Origin: Candidatus Saccharimonadota bacterium
GTDB lineage: Bacteria; Patescibacteriota; Saccharimonadia; Saccharimonadales; Saccharimonadaceae
NCBI GenBank assembly: GCA_009778675.1
Contig: WRFU01000001.1
Coordinates: forward strand, 797-64,796
Length of the DNA stretch: 64,000 nucleotides
Direction of reading: 5' to 3'
Made by a program: the position numbers and the translations under genes. This document shows positions 9,723 to 64,000 of the stretch, one piece after another. The notes under the pieces were generated by a model. That model was not told where the DNA came from. It did not search any database and worked only from the letters and a program-made list of their open reading frames with translations. Positions within the stretch are counted from its first letter, which is position 1. Each line of letters opens with the position of its first letter.

Positions 9723-10106
9723 ATGAAAAAAATATTGCTATTGTTATTACCAATCACAGTTATAGGGCTAGTGTGTTTAGCACCGGTTTCAACGTTGGCC
9801 GCCGATCCGTACAATGCCTGCCAGTATAACCCAGATGCTGCCGCTTGTGCCGATAAAGATACAAAAGGTGCGCAAACCAATTTAGCGACACGCGTCCAAA
9901 CTGTTCTAGACACAGTTTATCTGACTGCGGGCATTCTAGCGATTATCTTTATTGTTTACGCTGGCATTCGCTACGTTACCGCTACCGGCCAGGCCGATAA
10001 GGTAAAGCTGGCTCAAAAGCAGCTCACCTATGCTATAGTAGGGTTAATCGTGGCTGTTGTCGCTTTTGGCATCACGCGGTTTGTCGTTTATTGGGTAACT
10101 AGATAA
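9723..10106 (+). CDS. VirB2/TrbC-like pilin paralogue
   Basis: The start is moved to MKKILLLLLPITV (SD GGTGGAG). Motif: IYAGIRYVTATGQADKVKLAQKQLTYAIVGLIVAVVAFGI. Confidence 0.7.
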   Translation: MKKILLLLLPITVIGLVCLAPVSTLAADPYNACQYNPDAAACADKDTKGAQTNLATRVQTVLDTVYLTAGILAIIFIVYAGIRYVTATGQADKVKLAQKQLTYAIVGLIVAVVAFGITRFVVYWVTR

Positions 10107-10118
10107 GGGGGTTAAACC

Positions 10119-10511
10119 ATGAAAATAAAAAATTTAATCGTGGCAGCAGGTCTAGTGTTTACAGTTGGCGCGGTCGCTTTAGTGCCAACCACCACTACAT
10201 TAGCTGCTACTATAGCGGCCACCAATTCTAAAGAAGCAGCCAAAAACGGTGTGATCGATGTCGGTGGTGATAACAAAGATAATGGCAGTGCACTAACAGG
10301 TACGATAAGCGCCTTAGTTAATACCGCATTGTTCATCGTCGGTGTTATAAGTGTTGTAATGATTATTTACGCCGGTATCCGCTACCAAACAGCGGCTGGT
10401 GATCCAGCCAAAATTAAAACCGCTCAACATACTTTAACTTACGCTATTGTTGGCCTTATAATTGCGATTTTGGCTTATGCTATCGTTAACTTTGTCATAG
10501 GTCAATTATAA
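10119..10511 (+). CDS. VirB2/TrbC-like pilin paralogue
   Basis: 130 aa with a signal peptide. Motif: IIYAGIRYQTAAGDPAKIKTAQHTLTYAIVGLIIAILAYAIVNFV. Confidence 0.75.
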   Translation: MKIKNLIVAAGLVFTVGAVALVPTTTTLAATIAATNSKEAAKNGVIDVGGDNKDNGSALTGTISALVNTALFIVGVISVVMIIYAGIRYQTAAGDPAKIKTAQHTLTYAIVGLIIAILAYAIVNFVIGQL

Positions 10512-10909
10512 TGAGCCGATTCGTGCAATTGATTAAACTGGCCTTAGTGGTTATTTGTAGTGTATTTGTGTTTTCTACTCTACTGACGCCGGCGTTATCT
10601 TATGCTGCCAAACCGGCGGATCAAATCAATAATGGCTTAAATCAAGCCGAAACAGGCGATGCCACGAAAAGCAGCACGAACCGTTCCTCTCTGCAAAACA
10701 CTGTTGGCAACCTTATCAATGCCGCCATTTTTATTGCTGGTATTTTGGCGGTTATCTTTATTGTTTACGCTGGTATCAGCTACGTGGTGTCGGCCGGCGA
10801 CCCAGCCAAGATCAAAACAGCTCAGCACATATTAACCTATTCTATTGTGGGGTTATTAATTTGTATCTTGGCCTTCGCTATTGTTAATTTTGTCTTAAGT
10901 AGGCTATAA
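10511..10909 (+). CDS. VirB2/TrbC-like pilin paralogue
   Basis: 132 aa. Motif: IVYAGISYVVSAGDPAKIKTAQHILTYSIVGLLICILAFAIVNFV. Confidence 0.75.
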   Translation: MSRFVQLIKLALVVICSVFVFSTLLTPALSYAAKPADQINNGLNQAETGDATKSSTNRSSLQNTVGNLINAAIFIAGILAVIFIVYAGISYVVSAGDPAKIKTAQHILTYSIVGLLICILAFAIVNFVLSRL

Positions 10910-11027
10910 TAAAGGCGTCTGAGTGAAAAGCTTAAGCCTGTTTAAGTTTTCCCAAAGGATGTGATTTATTATATCTTCTGATATAATTTACGATAAGTCT
11001 TAAGCATTAACACGAAAGGAATAATAA

Positions 11028-11414
11028 ATGAAAAAACTAACTAAGATCCTAGTAGCCGGTGCGGCAGCGCTTGCTTTGGCCTTTAGCTTTGTACCAGTAA
11101 CGGGTGTTCTGGCTGATCCAGTTGGTGGCCTTGGTGATGGAGTTAATCAAGCTAGATCTAATGACCAACCAAGTAATCTCTTTGGTGATGGCGGTATTAT
11201 TACTGGCGTTATTAATGCTGTGCTATTTATCGTCGGTATTTTAAGTGTTGTTATGATTATCTACGGTGGTATCCGTTACGCTACTAGTGCCGGTGAAGCC
11301 AAGCGTGTCACTGATGCTAAAAACACTATTATGTATGCTATTGTCGGCTTAATCGTCTCGATTTTGGCCTACGCCATTGTCAACTTCGTAATTGGTAACA
11401 TCATCCAGTCGTAG
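11028..11414 (+). CDS. VirB2/TrbC-like pilin paralogue
   Basis: 128 aa. Motif: IIYGGIRYATSAGEAKRVTDAKNTIMYAIVGLIVSILAYAIVNFV. It has its own promoter and SD, and is closest to the distal copy at 17234..17647. Confidence 0.75.
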   Translation: MKKLTKILVAGAAALALAFSFVPVTGVLADPVGGLGDGVNQARSNDQPSNLFGDGGIITGVINAVLFIVGILSVVMIIYGGIRYATSAGEAKRVTDAKNTIMYAIVGLIVSILAYAIVNFVIGNIIQS

Positions 11415-11612
11415 CCGCAACATCATCGGCTTATCCCAACCCGTCCTAGACTGTTTTAAATACCCGCCTAACTGGGCGGGTATTTAAAAAACCAACTCAT
11501 CCTCCAAACAAGTCCGACTTGTTTGGAGCAAAAATGTGGTGTGATAAAACTGCGCCCTAGGCGGGGGTGCAGTTTTAAAATCATAAGTGACTCGTAACAC
11601 TTATTGCTTAGC

Positions 11613-12089
11613 TTATAGAACTTTTATCTTCTTGGCTTTTTCTTCTTTAACTTTGTCGAACGAAATAGTCAAAACGCCATCTTTTAGTACGGCCTCGACA
11701 CCGTCTTCTTTGATTGGCACTGGCAGCGCAATCGTGCGACTAAATTCGCCCCAGTAACATTCCTGGACGTGCCAGTTGGCTACTTCGGTGCTATCACCAG
11801 AGTTCAGCGTGCCGCTGATTGTTAAAATATTATCAGAAATACTAACGTCTAGGTCTTTTTTATCGACGCCAGCCGTACGGGCTTTTACCACCAACTTATC
11901 AGCAGTTTCATAAACATCTACTGCTAGCTGGCCTGGGAATTCCTCGCTTGTTTCATCCCATTCTTCTTCTTGTACCGGGGCTTCTTCCGAAGTTTCTTCT
12001 AGTAGTTGTTCGTCATTCAAAAACGCAGCCGCTAGTTCGTCCTCGATTAGAAGATCATTATCTTGTTTACGAGCCATAATATCCTCCAC
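11613..12089 (-). CDS. Hsp20/alpha-crystallin small heat-shock protein
   Basis: 158 aa with an alpha-crystallin core (LAVDVYETADKLVVKARTAGVDKKDLDVSISDNILTISG...GVLTISFDK). Confidence 0.85.
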   Translation of the reverse strand: MEDIMARKQDNDLLIEDELAAAFLNDEQLLEETSEEAPVQEEEWDETSEEFPGQLAVDVYETADKLVVKARTAGVDKKDLDVSISDNILTISGTLNSGDSTEVANWHVQECYWGEFSRTIALPVPIKEDGVEAVLKDGVLTISFDKVKEEKAKKIKVL

Positions 12090-12147
12090 TTAGGCTTTGA
12101 ATAGCTTAATTATACAGGCAAATTGATTTATAATCAATGAAATAGAG

Positions 12148-12828
12148 GTGAACGTTGTAAATAACACTATGCTAGATGAACTATTAAATTTTATAGCACC
12201 GCACTACTGTTGTTCTTGCGGGCAAAAAGGGCAGATTTTATGCCATCGTTGTAAAAGCGACATCAATTTTGATGGTCTAAACTATTGTCTACTATGCGGA
12301 TCGCCGATCATTCATAGTTGCACGCGTTGCCGGCCGGCTTACGCTAAATCTTGGGTGGTTGGCAAACGTGAAGGTGCGCTTAAGGCGCTCATAAACCAGT
12401 ACAAATTTAGCCGTGCGCGTAGCGCCTACAGACCTTTAGCGCAAATGTTAGCCGATACACTGCCCCAACTGCCGCCAGATACCGTAATTGTACCTATCCC
12501 CACTATCGCCCCACACGTGCGGGCTCGCGGTTACGATCAAGTTAAGTTAATGGCCAAACAGCTAGCCAAACTAAAGAGTTGTGCCTATGCCCCACTTTTA
12601 GCCCGTAAAACTAACACCGTACAGCATGGTGCAACTCGCACCAAACGCCAGCAACAAGCTAAACAAGCTTTTTGTTGTCGAAAACAATTAAATCCATCTA
12701 CCCCATATCTTATTGTCGATGACATCAGCACCACTGGTGCGACTGTCAACGTGGCCGCTAAAGTGTTAAAAGCTGCCGGTGCGACTAAAGTCTGGGTGGC
12801 AGTGGTAGCCTGGCAGCCGCACAAATAG
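12148..12828 (+). CDS. comF: ComF-family phosphoribosyltransferase-domain protein
   Basis: The N-terminus has double CxxC zinc fingers (CCSCG..CHRC, CLLCG..CTRC). The C-terminal PRT motif is LIVDDISTTGAT. The start codon is uncertain (GTG 12148 or ATG 12169). Confidence 0.8.
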   Translation: MNVVNNTMLDELLNFIAPHYCCSCGQKGQILCHRCKSDINFDGLNYCLLCGSPIIHSCTRCRPAYAKSWVVGKREGALKALINQYKFSRARSAYRPLAQMLADTLPQLPPDTVIVPIPTIAPHVRARGYDQVKLMAKQLAKLKSCAYAPLLARKTNTVQHGATRTKRQQQAKQAFCCRKQLNPSTPYLIVDDISTTGATVNVAAKVLKAAGATKVWVAVVAWQPHK

Positions 12829-12895
12829 TCATCATCCCCCGGGAGCTTGTAGTTTTCGCAAGACCTCTCATCTTAATTTTTGGTACAATAACTTT

Positions 12896-14341
12896 ATGTC
12901 TAAACTAAAATGGCTACAGCCGCCGCGTTGGTTAGTTTTTGTCGTGATTTTTATTTTGTTCACGTTAGTAGCTTGGCGTCATTTAGATCCGGATTTTGGC
13001 TGGCATCTGGTATCTGGCCAGTATTTTCTGGCTCATGGTGTGCCAAAAACAGATATCTTTAGCTATACGGCCACGCACTTTTCGTGGGTCAATCACGAAT
13101 GGCTAAGCGATATCATCCTATCGATAATCTACAGTTTAGGTGGTTACGGTTTAGCTGCCGTAGTTTATGGTGTTATGTGGACACTATCTTTTTACCTAAT
13201 TGGCCGCCGTGCTAACGGTTGGGTATTGCTAGCCGCCATTGCAGCCGTGCTACCTTGTGCTGGCGTGCGCGGTGTTACATGGTCGGTGTTAGGTTTGGCA
13301 GCTCTACTAACCTTATTAAACATCTGGCGTCAAAAGCTATCTAGCCGGCGGCGTCTACTACTGGGTATTGCCATAGTAGCGTTAATCGGTCTTTGGGCGA
13401 ATTTGCATGGCGGTTTTATTGTAGGTATCGCAGTGGTTGTATTTTATGCATTTTTACAAAAATCTTGGCGCCTAGGCCTAGTTGCTATTGGCGGTGCCTT
13501 ATTGGCGTTGATTAATCCATACGGGATTGGTATTTACGTTGAAGTAACACGCACACTACTAGATACTAGCCTAAAAAGCAACATCGCAGAATGGGAACCA
13601 GCCTGGCACTTGATGAATTGGAGCGCCGCCGCTCTGTTGGTGCTATATGGTGTAGCCTTTTTATGGACAGTCTCCAATACCAAACATCGCTCATGGCGTA
13701 CCTTTTTAACAGCCGAAAACATCTTTTTGCTGGCGGCTTTTAGCGCCTACCGTAACTGGCCATTTTTTGCATTAGCAGCGATACCAATGGTAGATCACAA
13801 CGCAAAACAGATTGCCAAAGAACTAACAAACAAGCCGCCCCACCGTATCAACTGGATTTTTGCAGCAGCGATTGTTGGGATGATCGCATTCAGCGGCTGG
13901 CGAGTGTATCAGCAAGACTTTAGCGGCTCGTGGCAGCGCGAAGCTAATTCGCCGCAGGCCGCCGTTAGTTATCTGCAGGCTAATCCATGCCCGGGCAATT
14001 TATTTAACGATTATGACATCGGTGGCTACCTTATCTGGAAACTGCCGCAGGCTAAAGTGTTTATCGATGGCCGCATGCCCAGCTGGGAAATCGCACCTGG
14101 TGATCGTAACTACGGCCAGTTACCAAAATATTTTGATGTTTATAAAAAGATTTACGACAATAAAGATAAACAGTGGCGCACAGCCGAGTTTAAAGCCTAT
14201 AACATTAGGTGCGCGCTAATTGGTAAAAACTCAGATTTAGCTAAAGCCCTAAAGCACGAAAAATGGCACCAAGTCAAAAGTGCTGGCGGCTGGGTATTGC
14301 TGATAGAAAATTCAAATTCGCAATCAGGTGATACACAATGA
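12896..14341 (+). CDS. polytopic membrane protein, possible GT-C-type glycosyltransferase
   Basis: 481 aa with about 10 TM helices and a soluble C-terminal domain. It sits in a cluster with a second GT-C-like gene and a GT2 gene. The ATG is 6 nt after TGgTACAAT (12881..12889). Confidence 0.45.
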   Translation: MSKLKWLQPPRWLVFVVIFILFTLVAWRHLDPDFGWHLVSGQYFLAHGVPKTDIFSYTATHFSWVNHEWLSDIILSIIYSLGGYGLAAVVYGVMWTLSFYLIGRRANGWVLLAAIAAVLPCAGVRGVTWSVLGLAALLTLLNIWRQKLSSRRRLLLGIAIVALIGLWANLHGGFIVGIAVVVFYAFLQKSWRLGLVAIGGALLALINPYGIGIYVEVTRTLLDTSLKSNIAEWEPAWHLMNWSAAALLVLYGVAFLWTVSNTKHRSWRTFLTAENIFLLAAFSAYRNWPFFALAAIPMVDHNAKQIAKELTNKPPHRINWIFAAAIVGMIAFSGWRVYQQDFSGSWQREANSPQAAVSYLQANPCPGNLFNDYDIGGYLIWKLPQAKVFIDGRMPSWEIAPGDRNYGQLPKYFDVYKKIYDNKDKQWRTAEFKAYNIRCALIGKNSDLAKALKHEKWHQVKSAGGWVLLIENSNSQSGDTQ

Positions 14342-59958: not shown

Positions 59959-59983
59959 ACTTAGTGTCTTGACAACACTAAGT
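59959..59983. promoter_or_regulatory. operator O1: ACTTAGTGT-N7-ACACTAAGT
   Basis: Perfect 9-bp arms. The spacer is the -35 hexamer region. Confidence 0.65.
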
Positions 59984-59998
59984 AGGGTATGCTAAACT
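59969..59998 (+). promoter_or_regulatory. promoter TTGACA-18-TGcTAAACT
   Basis: cTTGACAacactaagtagggtaTGcTAAACT. Operator O1 overlaps it. Confidence 0.55.
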
Positions 59999-60010: not shown

Positions 60011-60035
60011 ACTTAGTGTCATATACACACTAAGT
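60011..60035. promoter_or_regulatory. operator O2: ACTTAGTGT-N7-ACACTAAGT
   Basis: Its arms are identical to O1 and extend to 11 bp (atacttagtgt/acactaagtat). It lies between the TSS and the SD. Confidence 0.65.
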
Positions 60036-60083: not shown

Positions 60084-61010
60084 ATGAGTCAACTGAGAAC
60101 TAAGTATGAAGAGATTGTTGATGTTAGCAAAATTGCAACGAGGGGCGAAGATGAGCAGCCATCGGACATCGCATATAAAGCTAGCGCCGAGAATCTAAAA
60201 CCAAGCATGGATGACGGCAAAAAGGTATTATTGCTTACCATTGATATGCAGAACGATTTTATGCCAGGAATTGGTAGCCTCGGTGTGCCCGGAGCTAAAG
60301 AAGATGTGCAGCGACTGACAAGGTTTATCTACAATAATATGGGTCACATTACACAAATTATGTGTAGTCTTGACACGCACCATCTTGCTCAGATTTTCCA
60401 CCCTTGCTGGTGGATTGATGAACATGGTGACCATCCGACACCGTTTACCATCATATCTTATGATGATGTCAAAAATGGTGTTTGGAAACCGGTCTATGGT
60501 AACCCGAAACGCTCGGTTGAGTATGTTAAAGCTCTGGAAGCTGGCGGTAAGCAGCAACTGTGCATCTGGCCGTACCACTGTTTAAAGGGTACAAACGGCG
60601 CAGCGCTTGAAAACCAGTTTGCCAGGATGGTGTATTTCCATGAAGCAGCTCGGGCTTCCCAGGCACGTTTGATCGTAAAAGGCGAGGATATCTACAGTGA
60701 AATGTATGGTATCATCAAGGCCGAATACGATCCCAATGGTTTCGTCAATACCCCAGTGCTAAATGCAATTGAGGATTTTGACGAAATTTACGTTGCCGGT
60801 GAAGCTGCCAGTCACTGTTTGCCAGCGTCTGTTGAGCAAATTCTGGAGCATTACTCTAATCGGCCTGAAGTACTCGCCCGGATATTTATCCTGGAAGATT
60901 GTACGTCACCGGTGGCAACATTTGAGCAGTATGCCAAGGATAAGTTTGAATCATTCAAACAACAGTATGGCATTCAAGTGGTCAAATCGACCGATGTTGT
61001 TTTGGCCTAG
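60084..61010 (+). CDS. isochorismatase-superfamily hydrolase, nicotinamidase (PncA/Pnc1)-like
   Basis: The start is moved to MSQLRTKYEE (SD AAGGAAG). Motifs: LLLTIDMQNDF..GSLGVPGA, LDTHH..IFH, WPYHC, VKGED and VAGEAASHC, matching the Asp/Lys/Cys triad and metal-site positions of Pnc1-type enzymes as I recall them. Confidence 0.6.
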   Translation: MSQLRTKYEEIVDVSKIATRGEDEQPSDIAYKASAENLKPSMDDGKKVLLLTIDMQNDFMPGIGSLGVPGAKEDVQRLTRFIYNNMGHITQIMCSLDTHHLAQIFHPCWWIDEHGDHPTPFTIISYDDVKNGVWKPVYGNPKRSVEYVKALEAGGKQQLCIWPYHCLKGTNGAALENQFARMVYFHEAARASQARLIVKGEDIYSEMYGIIKAEYDPNGFVNTPVLNAIEDFDEIYVAGEAASHCLPASVEQILEHYSNRPEVLARIFILEDCTSPVATFEQYAKDKFESFKQQYGIQVVKSTDVVLA

Positions 61011-61041: not shown

Positions 61042-61722
61042 ATGACGGAGATTTTTGGCGCTAGTACTGTAAATGACAACCTTGCGATTGACGACATTGA
61101 AAATGAACGGCAGACCTTAATCGGACTACTGGTAGACGAATCAGGATCGATGGGAGGTTACCAAAGTGTTATGTCAGATTGTTTGCAGAAATTTAAGCAA
61201 GCGCTTAAAGATTCCAAGCAAGAAGATGAGATTTTGGTGTCTTATACGGGGTTTGATGACAATATTCGAAGCGGTGGTTATCAGCTGATTGATGATCTGT
61301 TGGTTAACTACCATGTTGGTGGTATGACCGCGCTATATGATGCTATTGTCGACGCTCAAGTTAAATTGTTTGATGGTAACGGCAATGGTTACCAAGAACA
61401 ATTGCGAGCCAATGGCATCAAGACTAAAGGTGTAGTGGCGATTTTTTCTGACGGTCAGGATAATTCATCGCAAGCGTCGCTTAAAAAAGCCCGTCAAGCG
61501 GTACAGTTCCTGCAGAGCCAAGAAATCGTCGTAGCATTTATCGCTTTCGGTGATGATGCTCATGGAATTGCCCAAGATTTAGGTATAGACGACCAAAATA
61601 TTTTGGAAGTTTCAGCCAGCGAATCAGAGCTACGGCGCGTTTTTGCAGTGTTATCAAAAAGTGCAATTTCAGCCTCGATGAGTGCAGCTACTGGTGCGTC
61701 TAGTAACGCTTTTTTCGTGTAG
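61042..61722 (+). CDS. von Willebrand factor A domain protein (TerY-like)
   Basis: 226 aa from the ATG after SD GGAAGGAG (the track start 60763 is an upstream artefact). The MIDAS motif is LLVDESGSM, followed by ...GGMTALYDA... and IFSDGQDN. Confidence 0.75.
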   Translation: MTEIFGASTVNDNLAIDDIENERQTLIGLLVDESGSMGGYQSVMSDCLQKFKQALKDSKQEDEILVSYTGFDDNIRSGGYQLIDDLLVNYHVGGMTALYDAIVDAQVKLFDGNGNGYQEQLRANGIKTKGVVAIFSDGQDNSSQASLKKARQAVQFLQSQEIVVAFIAFGDDAHGIAQDLGIDDQNILEVSASESELRRVFAVLSKSAISASMSAATGASSNAFFV

Positions 61723-61735
61723 TTCGATTGCCATT

Positions 61736-61779
61736 AAGGGGCGCAAAGCTGTTACGCTTTTGTGCCCCTTTCACTTTTT
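61736..61779 (+). terminator. terminator/attenuator-like hairpin between the vWA and PP2C genes
   Basis: aaggggcgcaaa-loop-tttgtgcccctt (one G-U pair) followed by tcacttttt. Confidence 0.5.
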
Positions 61780-61794
61780 AAGGAGGTGTTAGAA

Positions 61795-62469
61795 ATGGCC
61801 AAATCAATCAACATTAGTAAGATTGGCGCGGATCACCTGTTTTATGGTAAGAACCGACAAGATTTTGTCATTAATCTGCCAGGTTTTAAAATTGTGCTAG
61901 ATGGTTGTGGTTCGATGCCTTTTTCGGAAGTTGGTGTTAGCCTATTTGGTCAATTATTGGCTAAGCGTAGCCAGGATCTAAACGTGAATAACTTTGAACA
62001 AGTTGTTGATGGAATTTTTACACAACTAACAAATTTATCACCAGAATCGGATGAGTTTTGTTTGGATAACCTTTGTTTTACAATTTTGGCCTGTTTTGAA
62101 TTAGACCACACTTGGGTAGTTAAAGTTTGCGGCGACGGTTTTATATTATTGCATCAAGCTAACCGAGTGGATTATGTGCCATTAGACGATGGCAAATATC
62201 CCCGGTACTATGCCTATAATTACATTCGTGATAAAACTTTATTGCTACAATATGCAAATGGCGTCGATTTTACGACTTTCAGTTTTAGCAAAATCGGCTT
62301 TTCCAATATTGGTGTAGCTAGCGATGGACTGCGCTTTGTTTACGATTTAGCTTTAGACGAGCAGGTTGAGTTTCAAAAACGTTTGCTTAGTGGTAAGTCA
62401 GGCAAATTGTCCATGCTAATCAATCGTAACCAAGCTGTATTTAAAGACGATATTTCGATTTGTTTTTAA
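61795..62469 (+). CDS. PP2C-like protein phosphatase candidate
   Basis: 224 aa from the ATG after SD AGGAGG. The segment KIGADHLFYGKNRQDFV...VLDGCGS resembles the N-terminal motif of bacterial PP2C_2-type proteins. Position within the triad supports the call. Confidence 0.55.
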   Translation: MAKSINISKIGADHLFYGKNRQDFVINLPGFKIVLDGCGSMPFSEVGVSLFGQLLAKRSQDLNVNNFEQVVDGIFTQLTNLSPESDEFCLDNLCFTILACFELDHTWVVKVCGDGFILLHQANRVDYVPLDDGKYPRYYAYNYIRDKTLLLQYANGVDFTTFSFSKIGFSNIGVASDGLRFVYDLALDEQVEFQKRLLSGKSGKLSMLINRNQAVFKDDISICF

Positions 62470-62481
62470 GGGGTGATAGCT

Positions 62482-64000
62482 ATGAGTGTGCAATTAACAC
62501 CAACGGCGTTGCGCAGGCTTAACAAATTGGCTGAAGGCGGCGAAGCGATAATCTACGATTATAAACCAGATAAGGTAGTTAAAGTTTTCGGCTCAAAGGC
62601 CAACCTAAACCATAAGCAAGCCAAAGTTGAAAGATTGCTAAAGGCTAAGCTGCCAACTGAAGTAGTTTTGCCAAACGACACCTTGCTAATGAATGGCCAT
62701 TTCAATGGTTATGTAATGGCTAAAGTTGCCGGTGAGGCTGTTCACCAGCTGACCAAACGTAAATTTCTACAGATTAATCGGCTTAACAATAAAGCAGTTT
62801 TAGGGCTAACTCTACAGATCAGCAAAGTCCTGGATATTCTGCATCAACACGGTGTGGTGGTAGGTGATATCAGTGACTATAATATTTTGTTTGAACCGGG
62901 TAAACAACTGCAGCCACGATTTATTGATGTAGATAGCTGGGGGATCGGTGGCCTATCACCTGATGCTTTTACTGAAGGGTTTATGCCAACTGAAGCTTAT
63001 CTAAAAAACGGTATGCAGCTTAACGCCAACACTGACTTGTTCGGTTTTGGTGTGTTAGCTTTTAACTTGCTGAGCACCATACATCCATTTAACGGGACTT
63101 TAAAAAGTTCCCCCAATATGACAACTATGGAGCGAATTAGGCATCATGCTTCGGTACTTGGGACTAATAAAATTATAATTCCTAAAATGGTACCATCATG
63201 GCAATGGTTGTCGCCCGACTTACAAAATGCTTTTTTGCAAATTTTTGAACAAGATGTTAGATCCAGCTTAGTATCAGTGTTAGAAGATCAGTTGCAGCAT
63301 AGTAAATATTGTCGGTCACACAAATTGTACTACTATGATAAATATTCTGACTGCCCACTATGCAGTAGGTCAGCCAGGATTATCGCGGTGCCAGTAAAAG
63401 CGACAAGGCATCAGATTGCTATTAGTGTCATATTCGAAGCAGCCGATGTTGAACTACTGTTGAGTACCCATCATTATTTATCACGTAGTGGCCGCATTGT
63501 ACATATTTCTAGCCAACGTAGTGAGTTAGTGTGCTTTGGACACAAAGTGGAGTTTTCAGATGATGGCCAGTTAGCTTTTGTGGCTAGCCAAGATGCAGTG
63601 CAGGTTATTGATGATCAAGGTGCTCAAGTTGGCCTAGTAGAACGAGCTCATGGCAGCGATTTTAAAGTGATCAAACAGATGCTATATTACATTGATCGAT
63701 CGTATCAACTATGCAGTATTAAATTTAATCCTTTGGGTAATCAAAAATCTTGTTTGGCTTTAGCTTATCGACCACTATTCGGAGTTTCGGCTAAGGGGGA
63801 TATATGCGTAGTTTCGCGTTACCCAGGTAAATTGCAGGTGCAGATTAACCAGCATAATTTTGAGCTGGTTTGCCCTGACAAAATACAAGAATATGTGATT
63901 ACGCAAGATGGGTTAACTGGCAAATGGTTGTTTATCTACCGGTTGAATAATGGGAAATATCGTACGGTTGTATTTAGTAAAACAGCAATTGAATATGACC
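62482..64000 (+). CDS. Hanks-type Ser/Thr protein kinase with zinc-ribbon and repeat-rich C-terminal region (3' end beyond the window)
   Basis: Not in the track because it is edge-truncated. I translated all 506 codons and found no stop. Motifs: GGEAIIYDY...VVKVF, catalytic loop VVVGDISDYNILF, IDVDSWG, then CRSH...CPLC, then a beta-rich region. Confidence 0.7.
   Translation, partial: MSVQLTPTALRRLNKLAEGGEAIIYDYKPDKVVKVFGSKANLNHKQAKVERLLKAKLPTEVVLPNDTLLMNGHFNGYVMAKVAGEAVHQLTKRKFLQINRLNNKAVLGLTLQISKVLDILHQHGVVVGDISDYNILFEPGKQLQPRFIDVDSWGIGGLSPDAFTEGFMPTEAYLKNGMQLNANTDLFGFGVLAFNLLSTIHPFNGTLKSSPNMTTMERIRHHASVLGTNKIIIPKMVPSWQWLSPDLQNAFLQIFEQDVRSSLVSVLEDQLQHSKYCRSHKLYYYDKYSDCPLCSRSARIIAVPVKATRHQIAISVIFEAADVELLLSTHHYLSRSGRIVHISSQRSELVCFGHKVEFSDDGQLAFVASQDAVQVIDDQGAQVGLVERAHGSDFKVIKQMLYYIDRSYQLCSIKFNPLGNQKSCLALAYRPLFGVSAKGDICVVSRYPGKLQVQINQHNFELVCPDKIQEYVITQDGLTGKWLFIYRLNNGKYRTVVFSKTAIEYD

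Follow-up and report, generated by a model that had tools for sequence, protein, structure and literature searches.

Organization of the locus

The stretch of DNA analysed here, hereafter the window, comprises 64,000 nt of contig WRFU01000001.1 from a Candidatus Saccharimonadota bacterium and carries at its right edge three consecutive genes for a von Willebrand factor A (vWA) protein, a PP2C-family phosphatase and a Ser/Thr kinase. A first-pass annotation had assigned this triad to TerY-P, a module type reported as an anti-phage system. Comparison of related loci showed that the conserved unit is a set of four genes, in which the triad is preceded by a gene for a long nicotinamidase-like protein of the isochorismatase superfamily (ISO), and that Saccharibacteria, gut Clostridia and a large number of big phages have inherited this unit together (Table 1).

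Table 1. Features of the ISO-vWA-PP2C-kinase locus; positions are those of the window
Feature	Position	Strand	Remarks
Two candidate NrtR-type operator palindromes	59961-59981, 60013-60033		TTAGTGT-N7-ACACTAA, 21 bp each
ISO, long nicotinamidase-like (isochorismatase-superfamily) gene	60084-61010	+	308 amino acids; first gene of the conserved four-gene unit
vWA gene	61042-61722	+	226 amino acids; complete metal-ion-dependent adhesion site (MIDAS); Ser-rich C-terminal tail
Terminator-like hairpin and T-run	61736-61779	+	Hairpin 61736-61770; directly before the Shine-Dalgarno sequence of the PP2C gene
PP2C-family phosphatase gene	61795-62469	+	224 amino acids; Pfam PP2C_2
Ser/Thr kinase gene	62482-64000, runs off the window	+	506 amino acids in the window; kinase domain, zinc ribbon and beta-propeller

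The three co-oriented triad genes and their strong Shine-Dalgarno (SD) sequences were found where the first-pass annotation had placed them; the vWA gene is preceded by the SD GGAAGGAG, 8 nt 5' of its start, and the PP2C gene by AAGGAGG, and the gap between ISO and the vWA gene is 31 nt. The C-terminus of the truncated kinase was recovered from an identical public contig of a termite-gut metagenome (L001, identified by exact-protein look-up), on which the complete gene (10688-12424) encodes 578 amino acids and ends with a stop codon, followed by a convergent nadE gene. The possibility that the window copy lies in a prophage was considered and rejected, its neighbours being dnaG, rpoD, a DAGK-like gene, nadE and a Namat-like gene. 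A plasmid origin was also rejected, as tblastn gave one weak archaeal match only.

Conservation of the four-gene unit in bacteria and phages

A survey of bacteria, restricted to one genome per species, gave 33 loci with a related kinase, which belong to Saccharibacteria (some of them labelled Nomurabacteria) and to metagenome-assembled genomes (MAGs) of gut Clostridia. With profile hidden Markov models (HMMs), an ISO gene of roughly 305 codons was found directly 5' of the vWA gene in all 28 non-identical bacterial loci, and the synteny of the vWA, PP2C and kinase genes, the lack of which would have weakened the first-pass annotation by its own account, is kept in every related locus having upstream DNA. 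The viral survey of IMG/VR yielded 136 confirmed ISO-family loci, 80 of which were kept, and the family is also present in three huge phages of 462-595 kb in GenBank. Among the 75 non-identical viral loci, a vWA gene is present in 65 and lies directly 3' of ISO in 49, all four genes occur in 43, and ISO stands alone within 8 kb in only 10. Related triads are thus distributed over Saccharibacteria, gut Clostridia and large phages, the last of which hold the majority of the family members.

The viral loci are true phage DNA: a head maturation protease, polynucleotide kinase and RNA ligases 1 and 2 are among the PHROG matches around them, as are NAD synthetase and NAD-dependent DNA ligase. Phage and bacterial proteins share 28-40% identity for ISO and 23-32% for vWA, and the adjacency of the two genes persists through rearrangements that relocate the kinase. 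ISO and the vWA gene are separated by a median of about 20 nt and in some loci overlap at ATGA, and the gap between the PP2C and kinase genes is about 12-16 nt. In a maximum-likelihood tree of ISO, the sequences from bacteria fall into a single group that lies within the viral ones and has a phage clade as its sister (support 100/98), a nesting that could partly reflect sampling, since the bacterial loci were collected by kinase patterns and the viral loci by amidase patterns.

Several loci depart from the usual arrangement. The huge phage LR745208 (L125, 8998-16247) carries an expanded cassette composed of ISO, vWA, two unknown genes, PP2C, a small gene and the kinase, in which the two extra proteins between vWA and PP2C have 592 and 211 amino acids, the small open reading frame before the kinase has 123, and none of the three has a Pfam match. 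On the viral contigs L056 and L071, two ISO copies flank the triad in the order ISO-vWA-PP2C-kinase-ISO. A MAG of Cetobacterium (L033, 5989-9605) holds a kinase-vWA-PP2C triad without the nicotinamidase-like gene, the kinase being a distant relative with 25% identity; the triad therefore also exists alone, as in yegLKI of Escherichia coli.

Properties of the four proteins

ISO is the best conserved of the four genes, with up to 59% identity. The score of its product against the Pfam Isochorismatase profile is only 15.8 bits, which is under the threshold, and its relatives bear the JGI label "nicotinamidase-related amidase". The closest solved structure is the yeast nicotinamidase Pnc1 (2h0r, E 2.5e-7), and the remaining matches are all PncA. 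Among 21 diverse members from bacteria and distant phages, the catalytic residues Asp54, Lys199 and Cys245 and the metal ligands Asp97, His99 and His165 are invariant. The family was also seen without the triad on the giant-virus MAG contigs L057, L073 and L113, and tandem-duplicated long nicotinamidase-family proteins of 610-725 amino acids (P0124-P0129) were found, some of them from marine eukaryote transcriptomes (MMETSP). In the saccharibacterial locus L036, a gene of 215 amino acids directly 3' of the kinase (9923-10570) shows a weak C-terminal isochorismatase-domain signal (E 0.031) and is perhaps another amidase-like gene in degenerate form; the window's own locus lacks it.

The DESGSM motif on which the call of a MIDAS-containing vWA protein had been based is present as D32-E-S34-G-S36-M, and the metal site is conserved in the family of 22 sequences, in which Asp32, Ser36, Thr96 and Asp137 are invariant and Ser34 is at least 90% conserved; the Pfam VWA score of the window protein (22.8 bits) lies slightly below the cutoff of 23.8. 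Its C-terminal tail is rich in serine, reading LSKSAISASMSAA...FFV where the family consensus is SKSAISASK...FFDV, and such a tail is strikingly well kept, also in distant phage copies. Between the vWA profile and E. coli YegL the alignment extends from end to end, Ser-rich tail included (hhalign E 3.4e-4, probability 38%), and pairwise BLAST between the two proteins gives motif-level matches only.

The middle gene of the triad had been called PP2C-like, and its product indeed passes the Pfam PP2C_2 threshold (PF13672; 30.1 bits, cutoff 24) and belongs to a family in which all the metal-binding Asp motifs are invariant (D23, D36-G37, G113-D114-G115, D177-G178 and D218-D219). Its similarity to E. 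coli PphC is restricted to motif-level matches in pairwise BLAST and is marginal in profile comparison (E 0.014).

The kinase scores 33.0 bits against Pfam Pkinase (cutoff 31.7), and the motifs by which the first-pass annotation had recognized a Hanks-type enzyme, GDISDYN (128-134) and DVDSWG (149-154), are present, as is the ribbon it had noted, which reads C277-x2-H280...C291-x2-C294. Among 56 full-length homologues, G19-G20-E21-A22, Lys34, Asp129, Asn134, Asp149 and Asp151 are invariant, as are the zinc ligands Cys277, His280, Cys291 and Cys294. The N-terminal part shares 25% identity with E. coli YegI over 313 amino acids, zinc-ribbon cysteines included, and its Lys34 and Asp129, the catalytic pair whose conservation had been in question, align with Lys39 and Asp141 of YegI, which were mutated in a biochemical study of that kinase (bioRxiv 10.1101/819920) and are essential by experiment. 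The AlphaFold2 model of the full protein has a predicted local distance difference test score (pLDDT) of 89, and a fold search with it returned only kinases; when viral proteins were compared over the full length, the closest structure was that of a kinase from a gut Myoviridae. The long beta-rich tail noted earlier, modelled alone as residues 305-578 (pLDDT 92.9, predicted template-modelling score 0.88), takes the shape of a 28-strand beta-propeller resembling WD40 and BamB propellers (template-modelling score about 0.5), and no oligonucleotide/oligosaccharide-binding (OB) fold follows the zinc ribbon, the modelled propeller standing there instead. The kinases of the closest viral copies (L046-L052 and L040) have the same zinc ribbon and propeller. 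In the amidase, phosphatase and kinase all catalytic residues are conserved, as is the MIDAS in the vWA protein, and to judge from these residues the kinase, PP2C and vWA proteins look competent.

Searches of defence libraries gave little for the triad. No family of PADLOC-DB 2.0 matches the vWA or PP2C protein at E <= 1, a negative result from a library that also misses E. coli YegL and PphC and may therefore lack sensitive models, and the kinase gives generic kinase matches only (PD-T4-6, MkoA and mad6). An NCBIfam search returned nothing specific, and no similarity to plasmid TerY was found by tblastn, so that "TerY-like" is supported at the domain level only.

A positionally conserved hairpin divides the operon

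The terminator-like hairpin that had been noted between the vWA and phosphatase genes is present and is followed by TCACTTTTT; it folds at -25.4 kcal/mol (z = -3.2 against shuffled sequences), the energy estimates spanning about -21 to -25 kcal/mol. The hairpin stops 9 nt short of the SD of the PP2C gene, which leaves no space for a promoter behind it. A strong GC-rich hairpin sits at the same place within the vWA-PP2C spacer in 27 of 27 related loci, with stem sequences that vary by lineage. When a fixed criterion was applied (a single hairpin of <= -9 kcal/mol, then a T-run), the bacterial loci scored after the vWA gene in 25 of 28 cases, after ISO in none of 28 and after the PP2C gene in one of 28; the corresponding counts in the viral loci were 12, 2 and 0 of 37. 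Two exceptions were seen: in a Clostridium MAG (L027, 5225-5300) the post-vWA hairpin is followed by an A-run, and L020 lacks a T-run. No Rfam family, NAD+ riboswitches included, matches the leader or the hairpin.

With the hairpin between the tight ISO-vWA and PP2C-kinase gaps, the operon consists of two tight pairs split by a terminator-like element. The conservation of its position across phyla strongly supports the idea of a terminator, and the simplest reading is that the hairpin acts as an attenuator, so that amidase and vWA protein are made in larger amounts than phosphatase and kinase. Such an internal terminator would be a clean example of intra-operon stoichiometry control in which the shape, not the sequence, is conserved across phyla and phages.

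NAD+ genes and candidate operators around the cassette

Genes of NAD+ metabolism adjoin the cassette in several bacteria. On the 3' side of the kinase, just past the window's right edge, come nadE and a NAMPT-like gene (L001, 12469-14455). In L036 the cassette is situated between nrtR and a set of nadE, NAMPT-like and phosphoribosyl pyrophosphate (PRPP)-synthetase-like genes (10713-13956), and in the clostridial locus L038 (561-5178) a pair of PRPP-synthetase-like and NAMPT-like genes lies directly upstream of it. In both L036 and L038 the diverged PRPP-synthetase-like gene precedes the NAMPT-like gene. The NAMPT-like neighbour best matches 9W5W/9W5X (E 3e-110) and ordinary NAMPT at only about 1e-35; these structures are the phage (SPbetaL1) Namat of NARP1 (PMC12774641). 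The neighbouring pair therefore looks like a chromosomal NARP1-like Adps and Namat pair in Saccharibacteria and Clostridia, which would be of a kind already known, as chromosomal bacterial NARP1 modules have been reported (PMC12774641).

Upstream of ISO, two perfect TTAGTGT-N7-ACACTAA palindromes were found, the first of which overlaps a promoter-like site, TTGACA-18-TAAACT (59969-59998). With up to 2 mismatches allowed, four matches occur in all, two of them perfect, against 0.29 expected by chance; the imperfect copies lie at 62483-62503 (2 mismatches, at the kinase start codon) and 63526-63546 (1 mismatch, inside the kinase gene). The common architecture of NrtR operators is a 21-bp palindrome with a GT-N7-AC core (PMC2330246). 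Similar GTGT-N7-ACAC sites are found 5' of ISO in L002 and L036, and the exact operator sequence of the window is not conserved in other lineages, the GT-N7-AC architecture alone recurring in some Saccharibacteria. The palindromes upstream of ISO are therefore candidate NrtR-type operators of the operon.

Proposed function and alternatives

Based on the fixed linkage of the four genes, their conserved residues and their neighbours, a possible function was proposed in which the kinase and phosphatase form a phospho-switch acting on the nicotinamidase-vWA pair in NAD+ salvage or in NAD+ conflict, a proposal that is judged to have about an even chance of being right. A trio of the TerY-P/YegLKI type would have been recruited to a nicotinamidase. 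ISO and the vWA protein, encoded upstream of the putative attenuator, would be produced in surplus and function as a pair. The kinase may sense a signal or dock via its beta-propeller, and could then phosphorylate the Ser-rich C-terminal tail of the vWA protein, the likeliest acceptor, or the amidase; PP2C would reverse the phosphorylation. The output would be on/off nicotinamide deamidation, which would set the way in which nicotinamide freed when NAD+ is broken down returns to NAD+. In phages the cassette may serve NAD+ recovery during infection, and in bacteria it may be a domesticated part of an NrtR-controlled salvage regulon. As for the direction of the effect, the switch could speed Preiss-Handler recycling of nicotinamide after NAD+ cleavage, or it could remove nicotinamide and so starve the NARP of a competitor.

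Several points weigh against this proposal. The substrate of ISO is suggested by its residues and weak sequence similarity, and the hairpin could instead be an mRNA-stabilizing or processing element. Fixed adjacency shows co-inheritance and probable co-expression, not action of the kinase on ISO or the vWA protein. NAMPT/Namat-like genes are absent within 8 kb of the phage copies of the cassette, and the 64-kb window contains no nrtR gene, which does adjoin the cassette in the relative L036. Among public runs, the window sequence was found in termite-gut DNA runs only, and in no RNA runs.

A second explanation makes the nicotinamidase the effector of an NAD-centred conflict module, in which nicotinamide removal, signalled by the kinase, would block NAD+ rebuilding by the NARP1 or NARP2 of a competing phage or relieve product inhibition of NADase effectors, with cells using it for defence and phages using it against co-infecting phages. 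Nicotinamide is the common substrate of NARP1 and NARP2, the cassette is found in cells as well as phages and seems to pass from one to the other, triads of this type are familiar from conflict systems, and control by operators, an attenuator and a kinase/phosphatase couple would suit a potentially costly activity. However, the Adps/Namat-like pair and NadE as bacterial neighbours fit salvage cooperation better than sabotage, no toxin-like or abortive-infection component is present and no defence HMM match was obtained, so that this explanation is regarded as unlikely, although a modest chance is left to it.

Rather less probable still is a general Ser/Thr signalling module like YegL-PphC-YegI, whose targets would lie elsewhere in the cell or the infected host and whose nicotinamidase would be co-transcribed merely as a gene of the same regulon. 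Adjacency is by itself no proof of direct interaction, a beta-propeller is a generic interaction platform, and YegI is promiscuous with unknown physiological targets. Set against this, the ISO-vWA adjacency outlasts very deep divergence and rearrangements that move the kinase, which would be unusual for mere co-regulation.

Stand-alone TerY-P defence, in which the triad alone would sense infection and protect the cell and the nicotinamidase would be a mere neighbour, matches the triad in domain architecture, in the reported defence role of similar modules (Gao et al. 2020, cited in PMC11090510), in the weak resemblance of the kinase to the defence-associated kinases PD-T4-6 and MkoA and in the distant ISO-free triads of Cetobacterium L033 and E. 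coli yegLKI, but it is very improbable because no PADLOC model matches the vWA or PP2C protein, ISO is fixed upstream in 28 of 28 bacterial loci and is conserved better than the triad, the surrounding genes have housekeeping or NAD functions and form no defence island, the majority of members reside in large phage genomes, and the kinase of the reported defence version has an OB-fold and not a zinc ribbon with a propeller.

The proposed phospho-switch on the nicotinamidase-vWA pair can be extended to a more specific model, to which little probability is given: a previously undescribed, mobile, signal-gated nicotinamide-processing system common to large phages, Saccharibacteria and Clostridia, in which multi-site phosphorylation of the vWA tail by the propeller kinase, reversed by PP2C, would switch on and off the hold that the vWA protein has on the nicotinamidase through its MIDAS, and thereby decide whether nicotinamide from NAD+-depleting immunity is recycled or withheld. 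If true, this signal-gated system would add a new point of control to the NAD+ arms race and give a TerY-P-type switch its first assigned output.

To our knowledge, no output has been assigned to triads of the TerY-P/YegLKI type, widespread as they are. In the present case the triad is tied to a single enzyme whose reaction can be predicted, which makes the switch directly testable. Nicotinamide and NAD+ are central to the conflict between phages and their hosts, with NADase defences on one side and the counter-defences NARP1-3 on the other, and a regulated nicotinamidase in many huge phages and beside NARP1-like genes in symbionts with reduced genomes would add an unstudied layer to it. To this the window contributes a clean example from Saccharibacteria, an internal terminator conserved in position with internal controls, and a conserved Ser-rich vWA tail.

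Comparison with known systems

No paper pairing a nicotinamidase or isochorismatase gene with a vWA/PP2C/kinase trio was found in a full-text literature search. The four-gene unit resembles several known systems in part. Like PncA and Pnc1, ISO possesses an Asp-Lys-Cys triad and an Asp/His/His metal site, and nicotinamidases are its sole matches among solved structures. Unlike them, ISO has about 265-330 amino acids instead of about 180-235, with an N-terminal extension and insertions, scores below the Pfam threshold and is fixed beside a vWA gene, and its role as a nicotinamidase is a prediction from sequence.

NARP1 is a pathway of NAD+ reconstitution by Adps and Namat that is found in phages and some bacteria (bioRxiv 10.1101/2024.02.11.579819; PMC12774641). 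The NAMPT-like gene near the cassette matches Namat and is preceded by a diverged PRPP-synthetase-like gene, and the predicted use of nicotinamide and the occurrence in both phages and bacterial chromosomes are common to NARP1 and the cassette. In contrast, the NARP1-like pair is a neighbour and not a member of the four-gene unit and does not occur within 8 kb of the cassette in phages, and the descriptions of NARP1, NARP2 and NARP3 include no nicotinamidase, vWA, PP2C or kinase. NARP3, which consists of PnuC and NadR, was considered and judged unrelated.

The E. coli genes yegL-pphC(yegK)-yegI provide a closer parallel for the triad, as the kinase is 25% identical to YegI, the vWA protein has a YegL-like tail and the phosphatase is PP2C-like. 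However, YegI of E. coli has two transmembrane helices and a different C-terminus, yegL and pphC overlap without a hairpin, and no nicotinamidase gene is adjacent.

TerY-P comprises a TerY-like vWA protein, a PP2C phosphatase and a Ser/Thr kinase bearing a zinc ribbon at its C-terminus (Anantharaman, Iyer and Aravind 2012, as summarized in PMC11090510), and in the TerY-P-like modules that Gao et al. 2020 reported as anti-phage the kinase has, according to the same source, an OB-fold. The domain trio proposed in the first-pass annotation stands, since the same three domain types, one co-directional cluster, the zinc ribbon of the kinase and a complete vWA MIDAS are all found here; recognition by PADLOC or tblastn does not follow, the PADLOC matches being nil for two proteins and generic for the third, and the unit has four genes. 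The identification as the anti-phage system itself was abandoned, given the lack of a specific PADLOC match, the NAD+ salvage context in place of a defence island, and the prevalence in large phages. In contrast to TerY-P, the kinase here bears a beta-propeller instead of the OB-fold of the tested defence version, a nicotinamidase-like fourth gene is obligate, a conserved hairpin divides the operon, and the surroundings are those of NAD+ salvage, without Ter genes, restriction systems or a defence island. TerY-P triads are nevertheless known as add-on modules of other systems, such as CoCoNuT (PMC11090510), and the triad described here is likewise attached to another system. The description as "the anti-phage system TerY-P" is not warranted, whereas that as a TerY-P-like switch attached to a nicotinamidase is.

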